IMG/VR virus record: IMGVR_UViG_3300042197_001558
Coordinates: 1-54,168 of that record
DNA: 54,168 bases
Source: a virus
Lineage: Duplodnaviria > Caudoviricetes
Reading direction: 5' to 3' (one strand)
The notes below the pieces were generated by a model that ran no database searches, was not told the DNA's origin, and saw only the letters and a list, made by a program, of their open reading frames with translations. Shown in pieces: positions 2,867 to 48,918 of the stretch. Within the stretch, counting starts at the first letter, position 1, and each line of letters opens with the position of its first letter. A program made the translations under genes and the position numbers.

Positions 2867-3409
2867 ATGTCTGAAAAAGATTTAGGCCAAGGTTTAGAAA
2901 ACTTTGAAAACGAAGTAGAAGAACTTAAAAACAAAGAGTTTAGAATATTTGGAATAAAAGTAACTGCTATCACAATTACCGCTGCATTTACTTTATTAAG
3001 TACGATTATAGGCGGCCTTTATGGTGCGTTTGTTGTATATCAAGATTATATGAATATGAAACAGGCCATCCAGGAATATGTTGCGCCTGATTTGAGTGAA
3101 ATTAATGAAAGATTAAGTGTTCTTCAAAAACAGATGGAAGGCACGAAATCATCGGTGATGCAGTCCACGGATTACACTAATGAAATCAAAAATGATTTGA
3201 AATCAGATATACGTCGCCTAGAAGGTGTTGTAGAAAATTTAGAAAGATCTACCAAGCAAAGTCAGCGTGATGTGGACGAAACGGTAAAAATTGTCAATAA
3301 GGACATGAACAAGTTAGAACGTGATACCGCAACAGAACTTAGATCCATACGTGCCGAGGTGGACAGCAAAATCAAAAAAGCCCTAGATAATCCGTTGGCA
3401 GGAAAATAA
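2867..3409 (+). CDS. single-TM coiled-coil protein
   Basis: Hydrophobic segment followed by a heptad-rich region; AAGGAG SD. Confidence 0.8.
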   Translation: MSEKDLGQGLENFENEVEELKNKEFRIFGIKVTAITITAAFTLLSTIIGGLYGAFVVYQDYMNMKQAIQEYVAPDLSEINERLSVLQKQMEGTKSSVMQSTDYTNEIKNDLKSDIRRLEGVVENLERSTKQSQRDVDETVKIVNKDMNKLERDTATELRSIRAEVDSKIKKALDNPLAGK

Positions 3410-3418
3410 CAAAACCGC

Positions 3419-3447
3419 TTGACACAAAACCATACCACTGCTACAAT
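3419..3447 (+). promoter_or_regulatory. sigma70-type promoter for the tRNA
   Basis: TTGACA-N17-TACAAT. Confidence 0.8.
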
Positions 3448-3475
3448 GTGCCTATGTTGAGTTGATTAAGACTCT

Positions 3476-3552
3476 GCGTGGGAAGCACAAGTGGTATGGG
3501 CACCGTTCTCATAAAGCGGAGGCAGTCGGTTCGAATCCGACCCCACGCACCA
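3476..3552 (+). tRNA. tRNA with CAT anticodon (elongator Met, or Ile2)
   Basis: Acceptor GCGTGGG/CCCACGC; anticodon arm CCGTT-CTCATAA-AGCGG; T arm GTCGG-TTCGAAT-CCGAC; encoded CCA. Confidence 0.92.
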
Positions 3553-3578
3553 AACATATCAATACTGGAGTTAATATC

Positions 3579-3758
3579 ATGAAACAAAAAACATTTGAAA
3601 ACATGGTAACGCATGAACAATACATTTGTCCGAATACCCGAGATATTCGTGTGATTGATAATGTGGAGTATCTACCAGTTCAAAAGGTTAATTCTCCTCG
3701 TATTGTTTTGATGCGTCGTGATGCGCTTAAGCCTGTGGTTCTTGACAAGAAGGTATAA
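3579..3758 (+). CDS. hypothetical protein
   Basis: GGAG SD before ATG3579; the longer ORF-track start overlaps the tRNA. Confidence 0.75.
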   Translation: MKQKTFENMVTHEQYICPNTRDIRVIDNVEYLPVQKVNSPRIVLMRRDALKPVVLDKKV

Positions 3759-3762
3759 ATCT

Positions 3763-4119
3763 ATGAATTTTTGGGGTTATCATCTAATGCTTGATTGTAG
3801 TGGCTGCAATCAAAATGTATCCGATCGTGAATCAATTTATAATTTCAATTCTGAATTGATTGAACGCATTGATATGATCGCCAGTGGCGAACCTATCATC
3901 AAGCATCTATTGCCTGGCGACCCTAAACAGGGTTACAGTTTGATGCAACTAATTACAACTAGTAATATCTGTGCTCACTTCATGGATCACGGCGGTACAG
4001 CATATATTGATATCTTTTCCTGTAAAGAATTTGATATTGAAGCAGCCAAAGAAATTGTATCAAAGTATTTTGCTCCAGCAAAAATGCGAACTATGTATGT
4101 AATTCGTCACGCTGATTGA
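3763..4119 (+). CDS. speD: S-adenosylmethionine decarboxylase proenzyme-like (pyruvoyl)
   Basis: GYHLMLD...GYSLMQLITTSNICAHF...YIDIFSCK. Confidence 0.8.
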   Translation: MNFWGYHLMLDCSGCNQNVSDRESIYNFNSELIERIDMIASGEPIIKHLLPGDPKQGYSLMQLITTSNICAHFMDHGGTAYIDIFSCKEFDIEAAKEIVSKYFAPAKMRTMYVIRHAD

Positions 4120-4126
4120 GATCAAA

Positions 4127-4900
4127 ATGTCTTTTGATAAAGTTTTAATTTTCGGCAAAGGAAAAGTAGGAACTGCTACTCAAGAAATACTTAATATTGA
4201 CGTAGATTTTGTAGATAAACCAAAAAACATTGATGTATCTGATATATCAATTTACGATCTAGCAATTATATGTGTGCCATCGTTAACTCGTGGTCATAAT
4301 GATTACTTAGAAGTAAATCAATGTTTAGACAGATTAAAAGATAATTTTGATGGGTTGATTGCGTTACGCTCAACCGTATCTCCGAACTATTTACGAGAGA
4401 TCAGTGAGAAGTATAGTAATTTAAATATCATTTACTTCCCTGAGTTCTTAAAACAAAGAAGTTATGAAACTAACACTACACCTTGGATTACAGTTTTAGG
4501 TGGGAATTTAGAGTTAACAGAGCCATTTTCAAAATGGCTGCTTGACCGTAATTATGGCTCAAAAGAACTAGTACATTTAGTTTCATTAGAAGAAAGTGCT
4601 TTGATAAAACTGTTTCAAAATGCTGGGTTAGCACTTAAAGTAACATACGCTAATGTTATGTTTGAAGCATGTAAAATGTTTGAAGCAAATTTTGAAAAGG
4701 TAAAGTTTGGAGTAGGTTCAGACAAAAGAATTGGCATGGATCATTTAAATGTGCCAGGAGAAGATGGGTTTGGATTCGGTGGACATTGTTTGCCGAAAGA
4801 CCTGAACTGTTTATCTCATGTGTATGATCATGCTGATTTTTGGTCAACCGTTATCGCAGCAAATCAATCTTTTCTTAAGAAAAACAACCAAAATACTTGA
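4127..4900 (+). CDS. UDP-glucose/GDP-mannose dehydrogenase family (short form)
   Basis: GKGKVG, RSTV, PEFL and GFGGHCLPKD motifs. Confidence 0.85.
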   Translation: MSFDKVLIFGKGKVGTATQEILNIDVDFVDKPKNIDVSDISIYDLAIICVPSLTRGHNDYLEVNQCLDRLKDNFDGLIALRSTVSPNYLREISEKYSNLNIIYFPEFLKQRSYETNTTPWITVLGGNLELTEPFSKWLLDRNYGSKELVHLVSLEESALIKLFQNAGLALKVTYANVMFEACKMFEANFEKVKFGVGSDKRIGMDHLNVPGEDGFGFGGHCLPKDLNCLSHVYDHADFWSTVIAANQSFLKKNNQNT

Positions 4901-4925
4901 ATTATAATAAGATGTCTAATATAAT
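4897..4925 (+). promoter_or_regulatory. sigma70-type promoter
   Basis: TTGAAT-N17-TATAAT; the TGA is also the stop of the upstream gene. Confidence 0.7.
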
Positions 4926-4942
4926 AGACGCATAGACAAATA

Positions 4943-5106
4943 AGGCTAGGCACAGCAACCAATAATAATGGAGGACTGGGGTAACCCTGTCGAGGTGAGT
5001 TTCGATTTCTCACTTGAATCAAAAAGTAGAAAACTAGCCTGTTAAAGTTAGTGAATGCTAACAGCAACCAAAAAAATCAAACCGTAACTTTGAAAAAACG
5101 CATTCA
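4943..5106 (+). ncRNA. candidate structured RNA: two stems each followed by ACAGCAACCAA
   Basis: AGGCTAG(4943)/CTAGCCT(5040) and TGAATGC(5052)/GCATTCA(5106); internal GNRA hairpin and TTCGA-loop hairpin. Confidence 0.6.
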
Positions 5107-5121
5107 GAAAGGAAATCAAAA

Positions 5122-6537
5122 ATGAACACATTCGTTGAAGCAATCAAGGAACAAGAAGTTCGTACCGCTAACGGTATGAAGGCCCGTAAGACTACTGCTA
5201 ACGCTGTAGTAGACTTTTTCTACAATGTAGGCGCAAGTCGTGGGAAGAACATCATCCCACAATTCGTAGCCGCACTGACCGAAGATCGTGAACTAGCACT
5301 TCGTGTGGCACTATGGAGTCGTGATGTCCGTAGTGGCGCAGGTGAACGCCAACTATTTCGTGATATGTTGGTGTATCTGGAAAAGCATGATCCTGCAAGT
5401 GCAGAGCGCCTATTGGCTAAGATCCCAGAACTGGGCCGTTTTGATGACCTATTCGTCTTCAAGACTCCAGATTTGAAGTCAAAGGCTTACACTCTGCTGG
5501 GTAATCATCTGCGTGAACGAAATGGTCTCGCAGCAAAGTGGACTCCACGTAAGGGACCAGTTGCTAATGAACTCCGTGCTTTCTTCGGTATGAGCCCAAA
5601 GCAATATCGTAAGAGTTTGGTAGAAATGACCAAGGTAGTAGAAAGCCAGATGTGTGCTGGTGATTGGGATAACATCAATTTCAGTCATGTGCCAAGTCAG
5701 GCTAGCCGTATTTACAAGAAGGCTTTTAATCGTCATACCACTAAGTTCGCAGAATATGTGGCTAAGTTGGTAAGCGGTGATAAGTCTGTAAAGGTAAACG
5801 CTGGTGCTATCTTTCCGCATGATGTCTTGAAGGGTCAAATCAGTGCTTATGGTCCACAGAAGTTGAATAAGACTGAACTAGATCATCTAGTGGCACAATG
5901 GGATGCGTTGCCTAACTATGTTGGTGATGCTAACATTCTACCACTGGTAGATGTAAGTGGATCGATGCAATGCCCAGCAGGAAAGAATACCAGTGTGACC
6001 TGTCTGGATATCAGTGTTAGTTTGGGTCTATATCTTGCTGATAAGAACCGTGGTGCATTTCATGGTACTTTCTTGACATTTAGTGGTCGTCCTGAACTTG
6101 TTACTCTCAAGGGTAACATTGTTCAGAAGATCGCACAAATGACTGGTAGCAGTTGGGGTATGAACACCAACCTACATGCTGCTATGGAAAAGATTCTTAG
6201 TGTTGCGGTCAAGCAGAATGTACCACAGGGTGATATGCCAAAGATGCTTTTGATCTTGTCCGATATGCAATTTGATCATTGTGTACAGCATGATGATAGT
6301 GCTATGGAGATGATTGAACGCAAGTTTAAGTCAGCGGGGTACGATATGCCTCAAGTAGTATTTTGGAATCTTAACAGTACAGACAATGTACCAGTTAAGA
6401 GTGACAAGAGTGGAGCAGCATTGGTAAGTGGTTATAGTCCAAGTATTATGACCAGTCTATTGAGTGCTGATGCCAGTCAGTTTACTCCACGTGGCATCAT
6501 GTTGAAGACCATCAACAATCCTCGATACGATTGCTAA
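5122..6537 (+). CDS. DUF2828-type TROVE/Ro60-like protein with vWA domain
   Basis: RDVRSGAGER, GRFDDL, AAKWTPR, MIDAS DVSGSM, SDMQFD, VFWNL. Confidence 0.8.
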   Translation: MNTFVEAIKEQEVRTANGMKARKTTANAVVDFFYNVGASRGKNIIPQFVAALTEDRELALRVALWSRDVRSGAGERQLFRDMLVYLEKHDPASAERLLAKIPELGRFDDLFVFKTPDLKSKAYTLLGNHLRERNGLAAKWTPRKGPVANELRAFFGMSPKQYRKSLVEMTKVVESQMCAGDWDNINFSHVPSQASRIYKKAFNRHTTKFAEYVAKLVSGDKSVKVNAGAIFPHDVLKGQISAYGPQKLNKTELDHLVAQWDALPNYVGDANILPLVDVSGSMQCPAGKNTSVTCLDISVSLGLYLADKNRGAFHGTFLTFSGRPELVTLKGNIVQKIAQMTGSSWGMNTNLHAAMEKILSVAVKQNVPQGDMPKMLLILSDMQFDHCVQHDDSAMEMIERKFKSAGYDMPQVVFWNLNSTDNVPVKSDKSGAALVSGYSPSIMTSLLSADASQFTPRGIMLKTINNPRYDC

Positions 6538-26356: not shown

Positions 26357-26719
26357 ATGGCTCGTAAGACTAAGGCAGAAAAGTTGGCTGAACAAGAGGC
26401 TCTTCGTCAACTTCAAGAGGAACAAGCACGACAAGAATATTTGCCGCGGCTGATTCAGAGTCTTGAAGAGGCTCAAAAGTACGGATTCGAAGTTGTCATC
26501 AAGGAAGGCAAACTGACTCTTGTCGAACAATTTCATCGGGAACCTGAATTTACATTCAGTTGGGCGTGGACTTGGAGCAACCAATATCAGTTGGAAGAGT
26601 TGGAAGATAAATTGGCCCAGTACAAGCGTGACCGAGAAGAAGAATTGGCCCGTATTGCTGCCAAGGAAGCTGCGCTGAATAAGCTCACCGCTGAAGAACG
26701 CAAATTGTTGGGCCTTTGA
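26357..26719 (+). CDS. hypothetical protein
   Basis: AAGGTG SD; ends ALNKLTAEERKLLGL. Confidence 0.75.
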   Translation: MARKTKAEKLAEQEALRQLQEEQARQEYLPRLIQSLEEAQKYGFEVVIKEGKLTLVEQFHREPEFTFSWAWTWSNQYQLEELEDKLAQYKRDREEELARIAAKEAALNKLTAEERKLLGL

Positions 26720-44511: not shown

Positions 44512-44747
44512 ACGAACGATTTGCCAACAACAAGATCTATCTTCTGGCCAAAGAGGCTGGGTTGATTGAATTTGAAAAGTTGACCTGGAATCCTGAATTA
44601 CAATCTCCTACATATGAAAGTGTAGCCAAGGCAAGAAAATTTGCCGAGTTGTTGATTCGACAATGTGCTACAATAGCAGATCAAGCAGAACCTTACAAGG
44701 CCAACGATTTAATTCTAAAACATTTCGGAGTTGACAAAAATTCTTGA
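44508..44747 (+). CDS. MNERI/HFGVEE family paralog
   Basis: MNERF..RKFAELLIRQCA..LKHFGVD. Confidence 0.8.
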   Translation: MNERFANNKIYLLAKEAGLIEFEKLTWNPELQSPTYESVAKARKFAELLIRQCATIADQAEPYKANDLILKHFGVDKNS

Positions 44748-44759
44748 AGATGCTATACT
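44731..44759 (+). promoter_or_regulatory. early promoter embedded in HFGVD codons
   Basis: GGAG-TTGACA-N17-TATACT. Confidence 0.85.
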
Positions 44760-44774
44760 AGCATAAATAAACAA

Positions 44775-44825
44775 AACAGGCAGATAGACTTCCTGTTATC
44801 AACAAATAGAAAGGATTTTTCTATG
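44775..44825 (+). promoter_or_regulatory. candidate cis-regulatory leader (GATAGAC hairpin and RBS hairpin), copy 1
   Basis: AACAGG-CA-GATAGAC-TT-CCTGTT; ATAGAAA-GGATT-TTTCTAT(G). Confidence 0.65.
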
Positions 44826-45140
44826 TCTACGGTTACTGAAATTGCCGCTGAAATTGCGCGGCGCAAGCAAGAACTTGCCGAACTTGAAACTCAACTTGAG
44901 GTCGCTAAAACCGAACCCGACGATTATCGTCTGGCTCGTGAACTCCATACCTTGCTGTGTAAGTGGAATCATACCGACGGTTGTGGCTGGTATTATGAAT
45001 TCAAAGACAAACAAGATGTATGGACTGGTGATGCTCATTACCGATATTTGACCAAGGCTCGTAGGTTGACCCATCAGTGTCAAACTAAAAACATTAGCAC
45101 TCAAGATGCTATTGAAATTTTCAAGATGGTCAAGGAATAA
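44823..45140 (+). CDS. hypothetical protein (LH..LC.WNHTDGCGWYYE)
   Basis: Motif; intact ORF. Confidence 0.75.
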   Translation: MSTVTEIAAEIARRKQELAELETQLEVAKTEPDDYRLARELHTLLCKWNHTDGCGWYYEFKDKQDVWTGDAHYRYLTKARRLTHQCQTKNISTQDAIEIFKMVKE

Positions 45141-45143
45141 ATC

Positions 45144-45527
45144 ATGGAAACTTATACCGTAAAAGTTTATGAAAATGGTACTCGTCATTGGTATCAAAAT
45201 GATAAACTTCATAGACTAGACGGCCCCGCAGTTGAAAGTTCCATTGGTACCAATGAATGGTATCAAAATGGTCTACGACATCGAGAGGATGGCCCAGCAG
45301 TTGAATATACAGATGGCCATTGTTTTTGGTATCAAAATGGTAAACTCCATCGTCTAGATGGACCAGCAGTTGATCATACCAACGATGATCAAACTTGGTG
45401 TCATTCTTGGTGGATCGAAGGAAAACAATTTACCGAAAAAGAATTCCTTAAAAAGATCAAAAAAACCACCTGCGAAAATCTTACTGTAATTATCGACGGT
45501 ATCAAATACAAACTGGTCAAGGAATAA
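45144..45527 (+). CDS. LHRxDGPA-repeat protein, copy 2
   Basis: Three WYQN.xHRxDGPAV repeats; flanked by 20-bp direct repeats. Confidence 0.8.
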   Translation: METYTVKVYENGTRHWYQNDKLHRLDGPAVESSIGTNEWYQNGLRHREDGPAVEYTDGHCFWYQNGKLHRLDGPAVDHTNDDQTWCHSWWIEGKQFTEKEFLKKIKKTTCENLTVIIDGIKYKLVKE

Positions 45528-45530
45528 ATC

Positions 45531-46562
45531 ATGTCTAAGAAGTATGATACACTTGTATTCGTGGCGCGACTACAACCCATACATAACGCCCATGTAACAA
45601 TTATCAAGATGGCCATGGCAATGGCTCGTCAGGTAATTGTTATTGTGGGCAGTGCTCATCAAGCCCGTACCTTCAAGAATCCATTCACCAGCCATGAGCG
45701 TGAATGTATGATCATTGATGCCCTGCGTGATACCGAAGAAGAATACGATTGTAGCCTGCGTATTGAACATAATATTGATACCATCTACAACGATCAGGCC
45801 TGGATGATCCGTGTCCAACAACTGGTAGGCAAACATACACTGGGCATGACCAAGATTGGACTGATTGGACATGACAAGGACGAAAGCAGTTTCTATCTCA
45901 AGTGGTTCCCGACTTGGGCCCGTGAAGAAGTAGAACTGCTGGAGCCACTGAATGCTACAAACATTCGTGATCTATATTTCCGGCGTGATGTCAATCTAAA
46001 GTTTTTGGAGCGTGTTGTACCAGCAAGCACACTCAACACACTGGCTAACTTCATGACCACGCCAGCATTTGAACAAATTGTTCGTGAGCGTGAATTCATC
46101 GCACAGTACCGTAAGCAATATGAAAGCCTACCATATCCGCCCATCTTTGTTACAGCGGATGCCGTGGTAATCCAAAATGGTCATGTGCTAATGATCAAGC
46201 GTCGTAGTGAACCTGGTCGTGGGTTGTGGGCATTGCCTGGTGGATTTGTCAATGCTCGTAGTGACCGTAGCGTGGAGGATGCTGCTATTCGTGAACTGCG
46301 TGAAGAAACTGGTATCAAGGTTCCTGTGCCCGTGTTGCGTGGTAGCATTGTGCGTAGTAAGGTGTTTGATGCGGTGGAACGAAGTGCCCGTGGTCGTACA
46401 ATTACACATGCCTATTTCATTGTGTTGACAGGTGAAGAATTGCCTAAGGTCAAGGGTGCCGATGATGCTGAAAAGGCTCGTTGGGTTCCTATTGCCGAAG
46501 TCAAGAGTGATGAATGCTTTGAGGATCATTGGGAAATTATTCAACATTTTGTAGGAGCTTGA
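45531..46562 (+). CDS. nadM: bifunctional NMN adenylyltransferase/ADP-ribose pyrophosphatase (NadM-Nudix)
   Basis: RLQPIHNAH, VGS..KNPF, Nudix box GGFV..AAIRELREETG. Confidence 0.92.
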   Translation: MSKKYDTLVFVARLQPIHNAHVTIIKMAMAMARQVIVIVGSAHQARTFKNPFTSHERECMIIDALRDTEEEYDCSLRIEHNIDTIYNDQAWMIRVQQLVGKHTLGMTKIGLIGHDKDESSFYLKWFPTWAREEVELLEPLNATNIRDLYFRRDVNLKFLERVVPASTLNTLANFMTTPAFEQIVREREFIAQYRKQYESLPYPPIFVTADAVVIQNGHVLMIKRRSEPGRGLWALPGGFVNARSDRSVEDAAIRELREETGIKVPVPVLRGSIVRSKVFDAVERSARGRTITHAYFIVLTGEELPKVKGADDAEKARWVPIAEVKSDECFEDHWEIIQHFVGA

Positions 46563-46564
46563 AG

Positions 46565-46927
46565 ATGCCGTGTCGTGATTACTATGATGATCATCCTGAA
46601 AAATATTTCAAGGATGTTACTGAGCCTGCGCTAAAGAAACAGATTGCTTTTGCTGAAAGTGCGCTATGTCAAACATTGGCAGATTTTGAGCGAGTTTTAA
46701 CTGCCTTACATGAGGCACATCCTGATATCTATGAACTATCTCCGAAACCACTTGATCATATTAACTATACAGAAGCAGGCATCACTCGTAAGGAACTTGA
46801 ACGGTGGTGGAAGCAGCATAAGAAGTTGGATGCACAGCATCGTGAAGCAGAGCGGCTAAAGAAGATCAGAGAATCTGCACTGTCTAAACTCAGTGAAGAA
46901 GAAAGAAAGGTATTGGGAGTAAATTAA
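46565..46927 (+). CDS. hypothetical protein (MPC..WW..H...D family)
   Basis: AGGAG SD; ends ALSKLSEEERKVLG, like the 26357 gene. Confidence 0.75.
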   Translation: MPCRDYYDDHPEKYFKDVTEPALKKQIAFAESALCQTLADFERVLTALHEAHPDIYELSPKPLDHINYTEAGITRKELERWWKQHKKLDAQHREAERLKKIRESALSKLSEEERKVLGVN

Positions 46928-47148
46928 TGAAGGAACGAATCCGTGACCTACAAATTCAAGCCTTTGCTGAATGTAAAACATTCGAGGACAATAAGGTTAG
47001 AACTGATGAAGTGTTTGAACGATTTGCCGAACTAATTGTGCGGGAATGTTGCGACATTGCCTATGAACATGACGCACCAAAAATGAGTGGTCCTGGTATG
47101 ATTATTGCCGGTAGGATCAAACAACATTTTGAAGTTGAAAATGATTAA
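46927..47148 (+). CDS. MNERI/HFGVEE family paralog
   Basis: MKERIRDL..ERFAELIVREC..IKQHFEVE. Confidence 0.8.
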   Translation: MKERIRDLQIQAFAECKTFEDNKVRTDEVFERFAELIVRECCDIAYEHDAPKMSGPGMIIAGRIKQHFEVEND

Positions 47149-47164
47149 ACATACAACTGTCTAA

Positions 47165-47461
47165 ATGAGTATAACTATGGGAAGATCTCTAATTCCAAAT
47201 GTTGGTACGGTGTCGGATCAATTGATGGCCAAAGACCGTTTGATGATCATGATCTGCCAGTGGCATAGGAATGGCACATCATTCAATAATCGTCATTGGC
47301 GTAACGATGTTCCAGACATTGATCTAGATCGACTAGAGCGTGAATGTGGAATTAGATTTCGTAGATGGAATACACCGTGGGCAAATAATTTATATCAAGT
47401 AGCAGATTTTGAAGTGATAGATGAAAAAATCTATGCATGGTTCTTATTGAAGTATGCTTAG
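47165..47461 (+). CDS. hypothetical protein
   Basis: Ends FEVIDEKIYAWFLLKY. Confidence 0.65.
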   Translation: MSITMGRSLIPNVGTVSDQLMAKDRLMIMICQWHRNGTSFNNRHWRNDVPDIDLDRLERECGIRFRRWNTPWANNLYQVADFEVIDEKIYAWFLLKYA

Positions 47462-47465
47462 TCGG

Positions 47466-47494
47466 TTGACACAAAAATGGGTTTGTGTTACACT
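47466..47494 (+). promoter_or_regulatory. early promoter
   Basis: TTGACA-N17-TACACT. Confidence 0.8.
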
Positions 47495-47501
47495 GTGTTT
47501 A

Positions 47502-47550
47502 GTTCGGTGATAGACACTGAACATTTTAGATAAAAGGAGTTTTTATCATG
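47502..47550 (+). promoter_or_regulatory. candidate cis-regulatory leader (GATAGAC hairpin and RBS hairpin), copy 2
   Basis: GTTCGGT-GATAGAC-ACTGAAC; GATAAAA-GGAGT-TTTTATC-ATG. Confidence 0.7.
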
Positions 47551-48918
47551 AGTATTAGTAAGTCAATTTTGTTTAATGTAGATAGTTACAAAGTATCAAT
47601 GCACTGTCAAATGCCACCAGGTACTACTGGTGTATACAGTTACATTGAAAGCCGTGGTGGTGAATATGATCGCACTGTATTCTTTGGGCTTCAAGCGTTC
47701 ATTAAAGAATATCTAACCGTGCCCATCACACAAGATGAAATCAATCTTGCGGATGAAATTCTTACAGCGCATGGAGAGCCATTCAACCGAGCAGGTTGGC
47801 AACACATTCTGGATCAACATGGTGGTTATCTCCCAGTTGTTATTCGTGCTGTTCCTGAGGGTACGGTAGTCGGTACTAAGAATGTATTGGCAACCGTTGA
47901 GAACACTGATCCAGCAGTGCCCTGGCTAACCACCTGGTTGGAAACTGCCCTGCTCCGTGCTGTTTGGTATCCTACTACGGTAGCAACTCGTAGCTGGCAT
48001 ATTCGTCAAACTATTCTCAAGTATTTGGAGGAAACTGGTGACCCTTCTGGCATTGACTTCAAGTTGCATGACTTCGGAGCCCGCGGTGTTTCTAGTTTGG
48101 AAAGCGCGGGCATTGGCGGAGCCGCTCACCTTGTCAACTTTATGGGCACGGATACAATTTCTGGTATCCTTTATGCTCGTGAGTACTATAACGCTGGCAT
48201 TGCTGGCTTTAGTATTCCTGCCGCAGAACACTCAACCATCACCAGTTGGGGCCGTGACGGAGAAGTAGATGCTTATAGAAACATGCTCACTCAATTTGCT
48301 CGCCCCGGTTCTATCCTCGCTGTCGTTAGTGATAGTTACGATATCTACAACGCTGCCGGAAAACTCTGGGGAGAAGAACTTCGCCAACAAGTCATTGACA
48401 GTGGTGCTACTGTTGTTATTCGCCCTGATAGTGGCGATCCTGTGGAAGTCAACCGTCGGTTGATCCAAATCCTTGGTGAAAAGTTCGGCTATACTGTTAA
48501 CGCCAAGGGTTACAAGGTTCTTAAGTATGTCCGTATCATTCAAGGTGACGGTGTGAACGAGACCAGTATTCTAGCCATTCTTGAAATGCTTAAGGATGGT
48601 GGTTGGAGTGTTGACAACATGGCATTTGGTATGGGTGCTGAGTTGGGTCAAAAGGTAAATCGTGATACGCTAAAGTTTGCCATGAAGGCATCGGCGGTAT
48701 GTATCAACGGTGAATGGGTGCCTATCAGTAAGGACCCTATAACTGACCCAGGCAAGCGTAGCAAGACTGGTCGTGTTACACTATATCGTGGTCATGATGG
48801 CAGTTATCACAGTGGTGTGGAAGATTGGCCCCAGAGTGCCCTTGAAACGGTATATGAAAACGGTCGTTTGATCCGTGACATGACCTTTGAACAAGTTCGC
48901 AAGAACGCTCGTGGTTAA
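47548..48918 (+). CDS. nadV: nicotinamide phosphoribosyltransferase
   Basis: DSYK.S, LHDFGARG, PAAEHS, VSDSYD, IRPDSGDP, IIQGDG. Confidence 0.92.
   Translation: MSISKSILFNVDSYKVSMHCQMPPGTTGVYSYIESRGGEYDRTVFFGLQAFIKEYLTVPITQDEINLADEILTAHGEPFNRAGWQHILDQHGGYLPVVIRAVPEGTVVGTKNVLATVENTDPAVPWLTTWLETALLRAVWYPTTVATRSWHIRQTILKYLEETGDPSGIDFKLHDFGARGVSSLESAGIGGAAHLVNFMGTDTISGILYAREYYNAGIAGFSIPAAEHSTITSWGRDGEVDAYRNMLTQFARPGSILAVVSDSYDIYNAAGKLWGEELRQQVIDSGATVVIRPDSGDPVEVNRRLIQILGEKFGYTVNAKGYKVLKYVRIIQGDGVNETSILAILEMLKDGGWSVDNMAFGMGAELGQKVNRDTLKFAMKASAVCINGEWVPISKDPITDPGKRSKTGRVTLYRGHDGSYHSGVEDWPQSALETVYENGRLIRDMTFEQVRKNARG

Follow-up and report, generated by a model that had tools for sequence, protein, structure and literature searches.

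Two transcription units in a 54,168-nucleotide stretch of phage DNA, which was analysed in full and is called the window here, encode enzymes of NAD salvage, and both carry a pair of small hairpins between promoter and start codon. This raises the question of whether the two leaders share one regulatory RNA and, if so, what that RNA does. Judged from comparative sequence data, both are most likely copies of one conserved cis-regulatory RNA acting on translation of nadV and of the nadM unit.

The nadM unit begins at a sigma-70-type early promoter on the + strand (44731..44759; TTGACA-17-TATACT with TG before the -10, 11/12 consensus positions). Its leader (leader 1) forms a first hairpin, H1, at 44775..44797 (+), with an outer stem (44775-44780 / 44792-44797), an inner C-A / T-T step and the loop GATAGAC at 44783-44789. 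Following a linker of 8 nt, a second hairpin, H2 (44806..44824, +), has a 7-bp A/U-rich stem and holds the Shine-Dalgarno (SD) core in the loop GGATT (44813-44817), its 3' arm running two bases into the start codon (ATG at 44823). Three reading frames follow on the + strand. The lead ORF (44823..45140; 105 aa, function unknown, phrog_12218; orf105) has homologues in the same position behind the motif in seven related loci. The second ORF (45144..45527; 127 aa) contains internal repeats, and a family search with it returned no significant family. The third is nadM-Nudix (45531..46562; 343 aa), a bifunctional NMN adenylyltransferase / Nudix protein of the ADP-ribose pyrophosphatase type (CTP_transf_like 6.4e-10, NUDIX 3.4e-22), with which annotated relatives agree. 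An earlier, sequence-only reading of this DNA had noticed that the lead ORF (44823) and nadM (45531) both start with ATGTCTA and proposed that the leader once abutted nadM. The common start is real, and the proposal fits the relatives, in which the element mostly lies directly before NadM and a small lead ORF is present in a minority.

The nadV unit is organised in the same direction from a promoter at 47466..47494 (+; TTGACA-17-TACACT, 10/12 consensus positions). H1 of its leader (leader 2; 47502..47522, +) has a 7-bp stem with one G-U pair and the loop GATAGAC at 47509-47515. A linker of 6 nt leads to H2 (47529..47547, +), in which a 7-bp stem ending one base before the ATG (47548) encloses the SD inside the loop GGAGT. 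The gene itself (47548..48918, +) encodes a nicotinamide phosphoribosyltransferase (NAMPT) of 456 aa (NAPRTase 4.7e-65, NAMPT_N 5.1e-26). The two hairpins per leader had been described correctly in sequence and coordinates, and the minimum-free-energy folds are exactly these hairpins. A 55-nt piece folds at -14.0 kcal/mol (z -3.78; 0/200 shuffles equally good) and a 65-nt piece at -11.5 kcal/mol (z -2.11; 7/200); longer pieces fold less convincingly (z -1.00 and -2.20).

The window contains about 30 near-identical promoters on the + strand. From 31 strong-promoter matches, two of them without an ORF, 29 leaders could be compared. The 27 others lack both hairpins and any model match even with filters off, in agreement with the initial impression that no other leader has this form; they measure 6-40 nt and fold at 0 to -6.2 kcal/mol, with the exception of one 124-nt tandem-promoter case. 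An SD-in-loop hairpin abutting an ATG occurs at only two sites in the window, both being these leaders, and covariance model R2, run with filters off on both strands of the whole window, finds only the same two sites at E <= 1. At H1, leader 1 scores 60.9 bits with model R1 (E 9.7e-11) and 45.1 bits with R2 (E 1e-8), and leader 2 scores 46.3 bits (E 2.6e-7) and 38.6 bits (E 3.5e-7), respectively. Taken alone, the GATAGAC heptamer shows no enrichment in the window (4 matches vs 5.1 expected), and the window by itself could therefore not prove a shared element. TAGAC or TAGAT words recur 10-20 nt after many window promoters.

Relatives in phages and bacteria define the anatomy of the element. 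H1 is a covarying stem of 5-9 bp and of any sequence, closing a 7-nt loop that reads GATAGAC in phages and GANAGAC in bacteria, position 3 alone being free. A G-poor linker of 6-16 nt joins it to H2, in which a stem of 5-7 bp carries a 5-nt loop with the SD core GGA. No more than 4 nt separate the foot of H2 from the start codon, the distance from loop end to ATG is 29-37 nt, and the element always abuts the ATG. Each regulated cistron has its own copy, just behind the promoter or between nadM and nadV, and the element is also found straight after the nadM stop codon without a promoter. Loop variants include GATAGAG, AATAGAC, GAAAGAC and AATAGAT, plus a GGTAGTC group; in one alignment (A1) the exact heptamer was the selection criterion, so that the loop invariance there is partly by construction. 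About 11 nucleotides are conserved in the whole element, and the SD alone explains those of H2. Protein-binding sites, too, classically take the form of a hairpin in which a 7-nt loop is conserved and the stem is free.

Support for the stems comes from 75 leaders picked without any pairing criterion. Pairing is observed in 84.5% of cells vs 54.6% in shuffles, and the covariation score is 0.650 vs 0.141, with 0/500 shuffles as high and slid registers reaching at most 0.106. All four Watson-Crick types occur at the H1 closing pair, and likewise at H2 pairs 3-5. Both stems covary. Alternative pairing, a pseudoknot and loop-loop complementarity were sought within the element and none was found; nor was a covarying partner found for the free loop position 3. 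H2 is weak in absolute terms, at -3.8 +/- 1.1 kcal/mol in phages and -7.2 +/- 1.4 kcal/mol in bacteria. The nadV leaders of one phage clade retain H2 and lack H1, and H2 therefore has some role of its own. Overall, an NAD-salvage-specific structured RNA of about 45 nt is almost certainly real.

The distribution of the element follows the genes. Of 80 related phage loci, 53 have it directly before NAMPT (nadV), and 37 have it before NadM-Nudix or the lead ORF of the nadM unit. Across these loci and the window, R1 gives 117 matches with E <= 1, every one on the strand of the gene, and 93 of them reach E <= 1.8e-6: two in the window, 53 at a NAMPT start and 38 at the nadM unit. Five whole phage records (208-355 kb) contain two strong matches each (E <= 3.4e-9; next best E >= 0.165), and four whole bacterial genomes (3.7-7 Mb) two significant matches each, at nadM and nadV. 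Of 142 SD-in-loop hairpins in 603 kb, 79 precede NAMPT, 47 NadM, seven members of the orf105 family and nine other H1-carrying lead ORFs. A gene-blind pattern scan yielded 19 model-confirmed sites (NAMPT 8, NadM 7, orf105 2, other lead ORFs 2). The proposed tie to NAD genes is thereby upheld: in phages and bacteria alike, the motif occurs specifically at units with nadV or nadM. The regulon is not confined to phages, since bacteria of several orders have the element in their chromosomes. Among these bacteria are Lysobacter, Xanthomonas, Stenotrophomonas, Tahibacter, Achromobacter and Methylococcaceae, and the loop is common to Gamma- and Betaproteobacteria. Cultured phage carriers have Ruegeria, Xanthomonas and Synechococcus as hosts, among them DSS3P8 on Ruegeria pomeroyi and B23 and BUCT-ZZ01 on Synechococcus. 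It is clear that the nadV-nadM cassette is transferred as a whole among phages and bacteria, and the proteins behind the conserved loop are only 42-62% identical across carriers.

Rfam 15 holds no family matching the element (cmscan of the window at gathering score and of 44700-47620 at E <= 10), cmscan of eight bacterial and phage loci at E <= 1 gave no match at any leader, and the literature searched contains no description of it. Being conserved before the same genes and without a catalogued RNA family, the element is probably a new switch setting the amount of NAD-rebuilding enzyme. It most likely acts on translation initiation, since the fixed position at the ATG and the promoterless intercistronic copies point to translation rather than transcription. 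Coordinated translational control, as originally proposed, agrees with the presence of the element at the ribosome-binding site of each cistron, including the promoterless nadM-nadV junction.

The model that we tentatively favour is a minimal riboswitch. H2 would close off the ribosome-binding site with only marginal stability, and H1 would act as the sensor, its state deciding whether the ribosome opens H2. A metabolite of the NAD family, most simply NAD+ or its NMN or ADP part, would bind the H1 loop docked against H2 or the linker and thereby lock H2 shut. A fall in NAD+ would accordingly raise translation, making this an OFF switch, and in the phage NAD reconstitution would be switched on when the host NAD pool is drained. 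The weakness of H2 is compatible with a gate that the ribosome can open unless it is locked. The same loop across unrelated hosts and phages favours an RNA-only or operon-encoded sensor. Coenzyme-pathway leaders of such breadth are usually riboswitches, and guanidine-II provides a precedent for a two-hairpin riboswitch with conservation in the loops only. Against the model speak the small number of conserved nucleotides, the search for alternative pairings that found none, the likeness of H1 to a protein-binding site and the clade in which nadV has H2 alone. That the RNA itself is the sensor, with H1 sensing a metabolite, is a possibility we advance with reserve; that the ligand is specifically NAD+ or NMN and the switch OFF is unlikely.

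It is also possible, if doubtful, that a specific RNA-binding protein recognises the H1 loop and, by clamping H2, represses or activates translation. Such an operator would agree with the anatomy, in which the 7-nt loop is conserved, its stem covaries freely and the spacing to the start codon is constant. Since the element accompanies nadM and nadV in unrelated hosts, autogenous binding by NadM-Nudix would be the simplest case, with NAMPT less likely, and occupancy by ADP-ribose, NMN or NAD would free the mRNA. nadM is present in 5/5 phage records checked and adjoins nadV in bacterial loci; in one sampled genome (G199) the motif lies at nadM and NAMPT was not found with the query used, which weakens NAMPT as the factor and not NadM. 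The Nudix domain of NadM gives a weak, sub-threshold match to the RNA-decapping Nudt16-like family (E 9.3e-4). Against this, a domain search found no RNA-binding domain in NadM or NAMPT, and we know of no report of RNA binding by either. A host protein is an unlikely binder, because carriers infect Alpha- and Gammaproteobacteria and cyanobacteria. Autogenous control of this kind would mirror, at the RNA level, the action of NrtR, a Nudix-derived DNA repressor released from nadV operators by ADP-ribose, a response documented at nadM-nadV and prs-nadV operators in the account of PMC2330246.

A constitutive role is rather improbable. Here H1 would be a 5' or intercistronic stabiliser, a processing signal or a ribosome standby or enhancer site, and H2 a fixed presentation of the SD giving low or balanced output of the two enzymes, the pair being inherited with the cassette. 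The failure to find an alternative fold, the persistence of H2 alone before nadV in one clade and the joint movement of the cassette would fit, but six of seven loop positions are fixed while the stems have fully turned over and the proteins have diverged as far as noted above. A loop so fixed calls for specific recognition of its sequence, for which a stabiliser would have no need, and within these genomes the element is absent from all other genes. RNase III needs far longer stems than H1 or H2, which speaks against processing by that enzyme.

Transcription attenuation or termination, with H1 stopping or pausing RNA polymerase ahead of the gene, is very improbable. A simple scan flags H1 of leader 2, alone in the window, as terminator-like, and some bacterial nadV leaders (e.g. 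L244, L248, L267) have a G+C-rich H1 followed by five Ts. The G+C-rich stem plus T-run of an intrinsic terminator or attenuator is nevertheless not the general pattern, as the T-run is missing after H1 in most copies; no competing antiterminator is seen, and loop invariance and the fixed ATG distance would be left unexplained. Chance or a generic early-leader cassette, for which the unenriched heptamer and the TAGAC-like words in many of the promoter-leader units might speak, is already refuted by the short, nearly unstructured other leaders without an R2 match at E <= 1 and by the covarying motif, which recurs in unrelated genomes and is confined there to nadM and nadV.

NAMPT and NadM together constitute the NARP2 route. 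The available accounts describe them as a phage NAD reconstitution pathway that counters NAD-depleting defence (10.1101/2024.02.11.579819, PMC13464706). The element offers a defined RNA on both nicotinamide-salvage enzymes, with clear mutational predictions and culturable carriers (Lysobacter; phages). If it is a sensor, phages would be shown to tie their counter-defence to metabolite state. In the literature searched, no control of nadV-nadM salvage outside the NrtR regulon is described, and as far as PMC7749635 and PMC8632094, together with general background, indicate, two NAD+ riboswitch classes only have been reported, each in a narrow taxon. We propose, as a conjecture open to considerable doubt, that the element is a third minimal NAD-pathway class: a two-hairpin aptamer whose GANAGAC loop would sense NAD+ or a breakdown product (ADP-ribose or nicotinamide), common to bacteria and large phages of at least three host groups and making phage NAD reconstitution conditional on host NAD state. 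If so, phages would carry a metabolite sensor with which they respond to NAD-depleting immunity only once that immunity fires. Should NadM-Nudix prove to be the binder, it would add a new example to the metabolic enzymes that act as RNA-binding translational repressors. Under either reading, NAD-salvage modules can readily be annotated by means of the motif.

Among known systems, the NAD+-I riboswitch (nadA motif) is likewise a cis-acting RNA on an NAD biosynthesis gene. It has bulged-stem domains, and differs in architecture, gene and taxa. As the sequence-only reading had judged, the element belongs to neither NAD+ class, for the Rfam NAD models match no leader. The pnuC motif (NAD+-II) comprises P1, P1a and a pseudoknot including the ribosome-binding site, precedes pnuC, is reported only from Streptococcus and senses the nicotinamide-bearing part of NAD+, according to PMC7749635; it resembles the element in being a short translational leader, in belonging to an NAD-precursor gene and in having a conserved region that includes the ribosome-binding site. 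Here, in contrast, two independent hairpins covary, no pseudoknot partner is seen for the loop, and the sites precede nadV, nadM or nadM-unit lead ORFs in phages and Proteobacteria. NrtR acts on the same target genes in other taxa, on nadM-nadV in Synechocystis and prs-nadV in Shewanella, with ADP-ribose as effector reporting NAD consumption (PMC2330246, whose main text contains no occurrence of Xanthomonadales). It binds a DNA operator, whereas the present element is an RNA hairpin whose arms vary yet stay complementary around a constant centre, the reverse of a palindromic operator. A CsrA/RsmA-type leader would have at least two GGA motifs, one or more of them in a hairpin loop over the SD. 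The H2 loop presents a GGA, which is also the SD, the H1 loop has no GGA, and cyanophages are among the carriers, CsrA not being known from cyanobacteria. Protein-bound hairpin operators, such as those of T4 DNA polymerase and gene 32 and the iron-responsive element with IRP1/aconitase, also combine a conserved loop with a variable stem at or near the ribosome-binding site, and several are bound by the encoded enzyme itself or by a metabolic enzyme under cofactor-state control. The loop of the element is unrelated to theirs, and the element spans bacteria and phages of several host phyla. Similar in architecture is guanidine-II (mini-ykkC), with two small hairpins, a variable linker, covarying stems, conservation confined to the loops and the second hairpin beside the ribosome-binding site. 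Its loops are two identical conserved tetraloops; those of the element, of 7 nt and 5 nt, are unlike them in sequence and size, differ from each other and are not complementary. The genes are unrelated to those of guanidine-II, and Rfam gives no match. As in riboswitches generally, a conserved structured leader precedes the genes of one pathway in distant taxa.

The two NAD-salvage transcription units of the window begin with the same pair of hairpins. Unit 1, headed by a consensus promoter at 44731-44759 (plus strand), comprises a 105-aa lead ORF (orf105, 44823-45140), a 127-aa repeat protein, NadM-Nudix (nadM, 45531-46562, plus strand) and three small ORFs, and in unit 2 a promoter at 47466-47494 (plus strand) drives NAMPT (nadV, 47548-48918, plus strand). 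The sequence-only reading had placed a hairpin pair behind each promoter, and a check of the sequence located both pairs exactly there. The first hairpin (H1), with a 7-nt loop of the GATAGAC type, spans 44775-44797 in leader 1 and 47502-47522 in leader 2; the second (H2), with the GGA of the Shine-Dalgarno (SD) sequence in a 5-nt loop and its end at the ATG, spans 44806-44824 and 47529-47547. These hairpins are the RNAfold minimum free energy structures of short pieces (-11.5 kcal/mol with z -2.1, and -14.0 kcal/mol with z -3.8), the signal being weaker in longer pieces around both leaders. The claim that no other leader takes this form also held: the 27 others measure 6-40 nt and have next to no structure, with one tandem-promoter exception, and a scan of the window found an SD-in-loop hairpin adjoining a start codon at the two NAD leaders only. 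GATAGAC itself shows no enrichment in the window (4 matches versus 5.1 expected), so the window-only case for the motif is thin. The possibility that the H1 loop is merely the TAGAC-like word of some 30 early leaders was dropped, as the others fail the covariance model; recurrence of the motif in unrelated genomes counters this generic reading as well.

Those early leaders follow about 30 plus-strand promoters built to a single stereotyped pattern (TTGACA, 17 nt, TG-n-TATACT) between 19089 and 44083 of the window, for example at 26716, 27502, 38854, 43292 and 44055. The leaders, 22-36 nt in length, fall into a few recurring types; several share stretches of over 25 identical nt and carry a TAGAC/TAGAT word 10-20 nt past the -10. 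Together they look like duplicated promoter-leader cassettes ahead of small early ORFs and are reminiscent of the cassettes in T4-type phages termed 'promoter-early stem-loop'. Elsewhere in the window, a consensus promoter at 3419-3447 is followed some 28 nt on by a tRNA gene (3476-3549; 51.2 bits with Rfam). The early region also holds multiple copies of a small-protein family of about 85 aa (43357, 44508, 46927), which has 121 members in 50 related loci, several per locus. Between the lead ORF and nadM, the 127-aa ORF (45144-45527) contains a number of tandem repeats, each some 23 residues long and marked by the pattern W-Y-Q-N-G ... D-G-P-A, and has no significant match to a Pfam or PHROG family. 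The four sequencing runs compared with the window consist of contigs; RNA-library contigs of relatives overlap parts of it and are silent on starts, ends, transcription and processing; one, record 16 of sequencing run X24, spans the promoter and leader 1. This contig, from a close relative, folds back exactly at H2 (window 44804-44824), which most likely reflects snap-back of the assembly or the cDNA at the palindrome and is not functional evidence.

A near-identity search of the phage collection returned no near-identical record, and relatives were therefore sought through proteins, with 80 viral contigs of 284 relatives fetched via NAMPT at 69-78% identity. The 110 nt upstream of each NAMPT revealed a recurrent GATAGAC hairpin with differing arms, a short linker and an SD-in-loop hairpin ending at the ATG. 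Across the 603 kb of loci and window, GATAGAC with at least two closing pairs has 83 occurrences on the gene strand and a single one on the opposite strand, and all good sites lie 29-37 nt ahead of the ATG of NAMPT, NadM-Nudix or a small ORF heading the nadM unit; one contig (L016) carries three leader copies. A covariance model of H1, linker and H2 (R1) gave 117 matches at E <= 1 in the same sequence, every one on the gene strand. At E <= 1.8e-6 there are 93, made up of the two in the window, 53 at NAMPT starts (53/80 loci) and 38 in nadM units (37 loci). SD-in-loop hairpins are similarly restricted, the 142 in the 603 kb standing before NAMPT (79), NadM (47), the orf105 family (7) and other H1-bearing lead ORFs (9), and before no other gene.

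The same association with NAD genes is seen in whole records. Five whole phage records (208-355 kb, two of the five complete) each contain exactly two strong matches, at nadM and nadV, the next best being at E 0.165 or worse. In five records that first showed the nadV copy alone, nadM and a second copy lay just beyond the initial flank. A gene-blind pattern scan of the viral collection returned at least 80 loci, and the matches listed include at least 19 model-confirmed sites (NAMPT 8, NadM 7, orf105 homologues 2, other lead ORFs 2), and the carriers include phages in which NadM shares just 42-55% identity with that of the window. Cultured phages carry the element too. The motif precedes both genes in Roseobacter phage DSS3P8, whose host is Ruegeria pomeroyi (E 1.4e-7 and 2.6e-5), Xanthomonas phages LucasX (2.5e-7 and 8.5e-5) and RTH11 (4.1e-4 and 3.3e-3), and Synechococcus phage B23 (3.3e-7 and 2.2e-5), with a weaker match in Synechococcus phage BUCT-ZZ01 (E 0.024). 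Phage RsoM2USA has H2 only, DLP_6 a match at E 0.38 only, and H1 was not found within the stretches fetched from ACP17, Mx1 and RAS14.

Covariation in the leader stems is found in both alignments that we built, none of 500 shuffles scoring as high in either. The first contains 75 distinct phage leaders chosen by exact heptamer and downstream ORF without any pairing criterion, the invariance of the loop in this set being by construction. In it 84.5% of cells are paired versus 54.6% in shuffles, and the covariation score is 0.650 versus 0.141, slid registers reaching at most 0.106. The closing pair of H1 is C-G in 32 leaders, A-U in 25, G-C in 12 and U-A in 4; the five pairs of H2 are 100% paired, with pairs 3-5 spanning all Watson-Crick types, and many copies of the nadM type have an internal loop rich in A at H1 stem positions 3-5. 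The second (A4) contains 64 non-redundant phage and bacterial leaders set flush with the H2 end, with 88.4% of cells paired versus 51.2% and covariation of 0.881 versus 0.199, figures that are unbiased for the outer pairs alone, since selection demanded two H1 and three H2 closing pairs.

Variation within the H1 loop offers a glimpse of its geometry. Besides the loop variants GATAGAG, AATAGAC and GAAAGAC found by the model, the nadM copy of Synechococcus phage B23 (L095, 2168-2212) has AATAGAT instead of GATAGAC. Positions 1 and 7 are thus altered together (G-C to A-T), the only such double change seen, which is consistent with a 1-7 pair. A second phage clade (loci L032, L044, L055, L056, L058, L062, L068 and L070), where nadM is followed directly by nadV, has H2 without H1 at nadV; at nadM, about 1 kb upstream of NAMPT, the usual H2 accompanies a variant H1 loop, GGTAGTC (also GGTGGTC and GGCAGTC), in which positions 2 and 6 are altered together (A..A to G..T). 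This joint change at 2 and 6 hints that the H1 loop is in truth a triloop closed by 1-7 and 2-6 pairs. Position 3 varies with no visible partner, and inspection by eye of the linker, H2 loop and first codons for complements of the H1 loop found no pseudoknot or kissing partner. A GTCTA just past the leader 1 ATG, complementary to part of the loop, was rejected as a partner, being absent at nadV and in most relatives.

The NAD-salvage leader is not confined to phages. A G+C-rich version stands ahead of both nadM and nadV in bacterial contigs of Lysobacter, Xanthomonas, Stenotrophomonas, Thermomonas, Luteimonas, Dyella, Tahibacter, Pseudoxanthomonas, Achromobacter, Litoribacillus and MAGs of Methylococcaceae and Chromatiales, the 80 examined being those whose NAMPT comes closest (57-65% identity). 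It precedes NAMPT in at least 67 and NadM in at least 60 of the 80 loci, lower bounds from a strict pattern-plus-pairing filter (at least two H1 and three H2 closing pairs) that loses even leader 1 of the window. Loops are GACAGAC (80), GATAGAC (40), GAGAGAC (5) and GAAAGAC (2), so the consensus is G-A-N-A-G-A-C. The bacterial nadV copy sits in the short gap after nadM without a promoter, as it does in several phages. In some Lysobacter-group nadV leaders (L244, L248, L251, L257 and L267, about 2446-2480) five T come directly after a G+C-rich H1, which in those species could also serve to terminate transcription in part between nadM and nadV. A Stenotrophomonas MAG contig has an unrelated cobalamin riboswitch (93.7 bits; L219, 3958-4191) immediately past its nadV.

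Four whole bacterial genomes (3.7-7 Mb) searched with a second covariance model, R2, derived from alignment A4, have two significant sites each, at nadM and nadV; in a fifth R2 overlooked a known weak site. Scans at order and phylum level used stricter filters, and a genome without a match there is one in which the motif was not found by that search. In the order sample (41 genomes) the motif occurs in four and NAMPT in four: all three genomes with a close NAMPT have the motif, and one with a distant NAMPT (37% identity) is without it. A further 150 genomes across the phylum added one carrier, with both copies. Genome G199 has the motif before nadM, no NAMPT being found there with this query. 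Its second copy (L324, G199:C14, 3133-3190) follows nadM, ahead of ORFs at 3181-4212 and 4216-5190; a gap of 14 nt, with another SD in it, separates H2 from the ATG. The first of these genes encodes a Band-7/SPFH protein (Pfam 7e-18), and the next shows a faint likeness to NAD kinase (NCBIfam E ~6e-4, a score well short of the cut-off; PDB NADK2 E 5e-4). This copy is possibly an extra regulon member, or a relic after replacement of nadV.

Sequence, folds, covariation and occurrence at nadM and nadV together confirm the shared two-hairpin leader. Each NAD-salvage cistron has at its ribosome-binding site, wherever the promoter lies, a structured, sequence-specific RNA element of about 45 nt, which occurs at no other place in the genomes examined. 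Its description as a new riboswitch or operator stands as a well-founded candidate, with the amendment that the element belongs to bacteria as well as phages. We infer that it acts on translation initiation: H2 would hold the SD in its 5-nt loop with the start codon at its foot, at a predicted stability that is modest (-3.8 +/- 1.1 kcal/mol in phages, -7.2 +/- 1.4 in bacteria). The H1 loop would be the recognised part, as the only conserved feature besides H2. One loop is common to Proteobacteria and to phages of Alpha- and Gammaproteobacteria and cyanobacteria, and such varied hosts suggest that the recogniser is the RNA's own ligand or an operon product.

We tentatively place a minimal riboswitch first, in which an NAD-family ligand would lock the closed form such that falling NAD+ raises NAMPT and NadM. 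Against it stand the few conserved nucleotides, the lack of an alternative fold or pseudoknot among the structures found, and the clade that keeps H2 without H1 before nadV. An operator for an autogenous or dedicated protein is a close second. NadM-Nudix is the obvious candidate binder. Clustering of the ORFs in the phage loci, in search of regulators among the neighbours, brought up only NAMPT, NadM, small ORFs present in several copies and a downstream protein of 363 aa. A constitutive structural role for the leader appears unlikely. Attenuation is very improbable; a general terminator is ruled out, most leader copies being without a T-run. Chance is negligible.

The element matches no known family in Rfam 15, whether the window is scanned at gathering score, 44700-47620 at E <= 10 or eight loci from bacteria and phages at E <= 1. 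A literature search turned up no account of any such RNA ahead of nadV or nadM. For the large RNA-discovery papers it covered Rfam 15 and the main text of PMC8632094, where the words nadV, nadM, Xanthomonas, Lysobacter and Stenotrophomonas do not occur; candidate-motif lists that accompany those papers could hold the element under another name. In other taxa nadV is known to be regulated by NrtR, which works at the DNA level and responds to ADP-ribose (PMC2330246), and the main text of that paper leaves Xanthomonadales unmentioned. A palindromic DNA operator is ruled out for the leader, whose arms vary around a fixed centre. The sequence-only reading had not recognised the element as an NAD-I or NAD-II riboswitch, and the empty Rfam scan of the leaders agrees. 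The NAD+-II riboswitch, in the account of PMC7749635, is built of P1, P1a and a pseudoknot and precedes pnuC in Streptococcus; as described there it differs from the NAD-salvage leader in architecture, gene and taxon alike.
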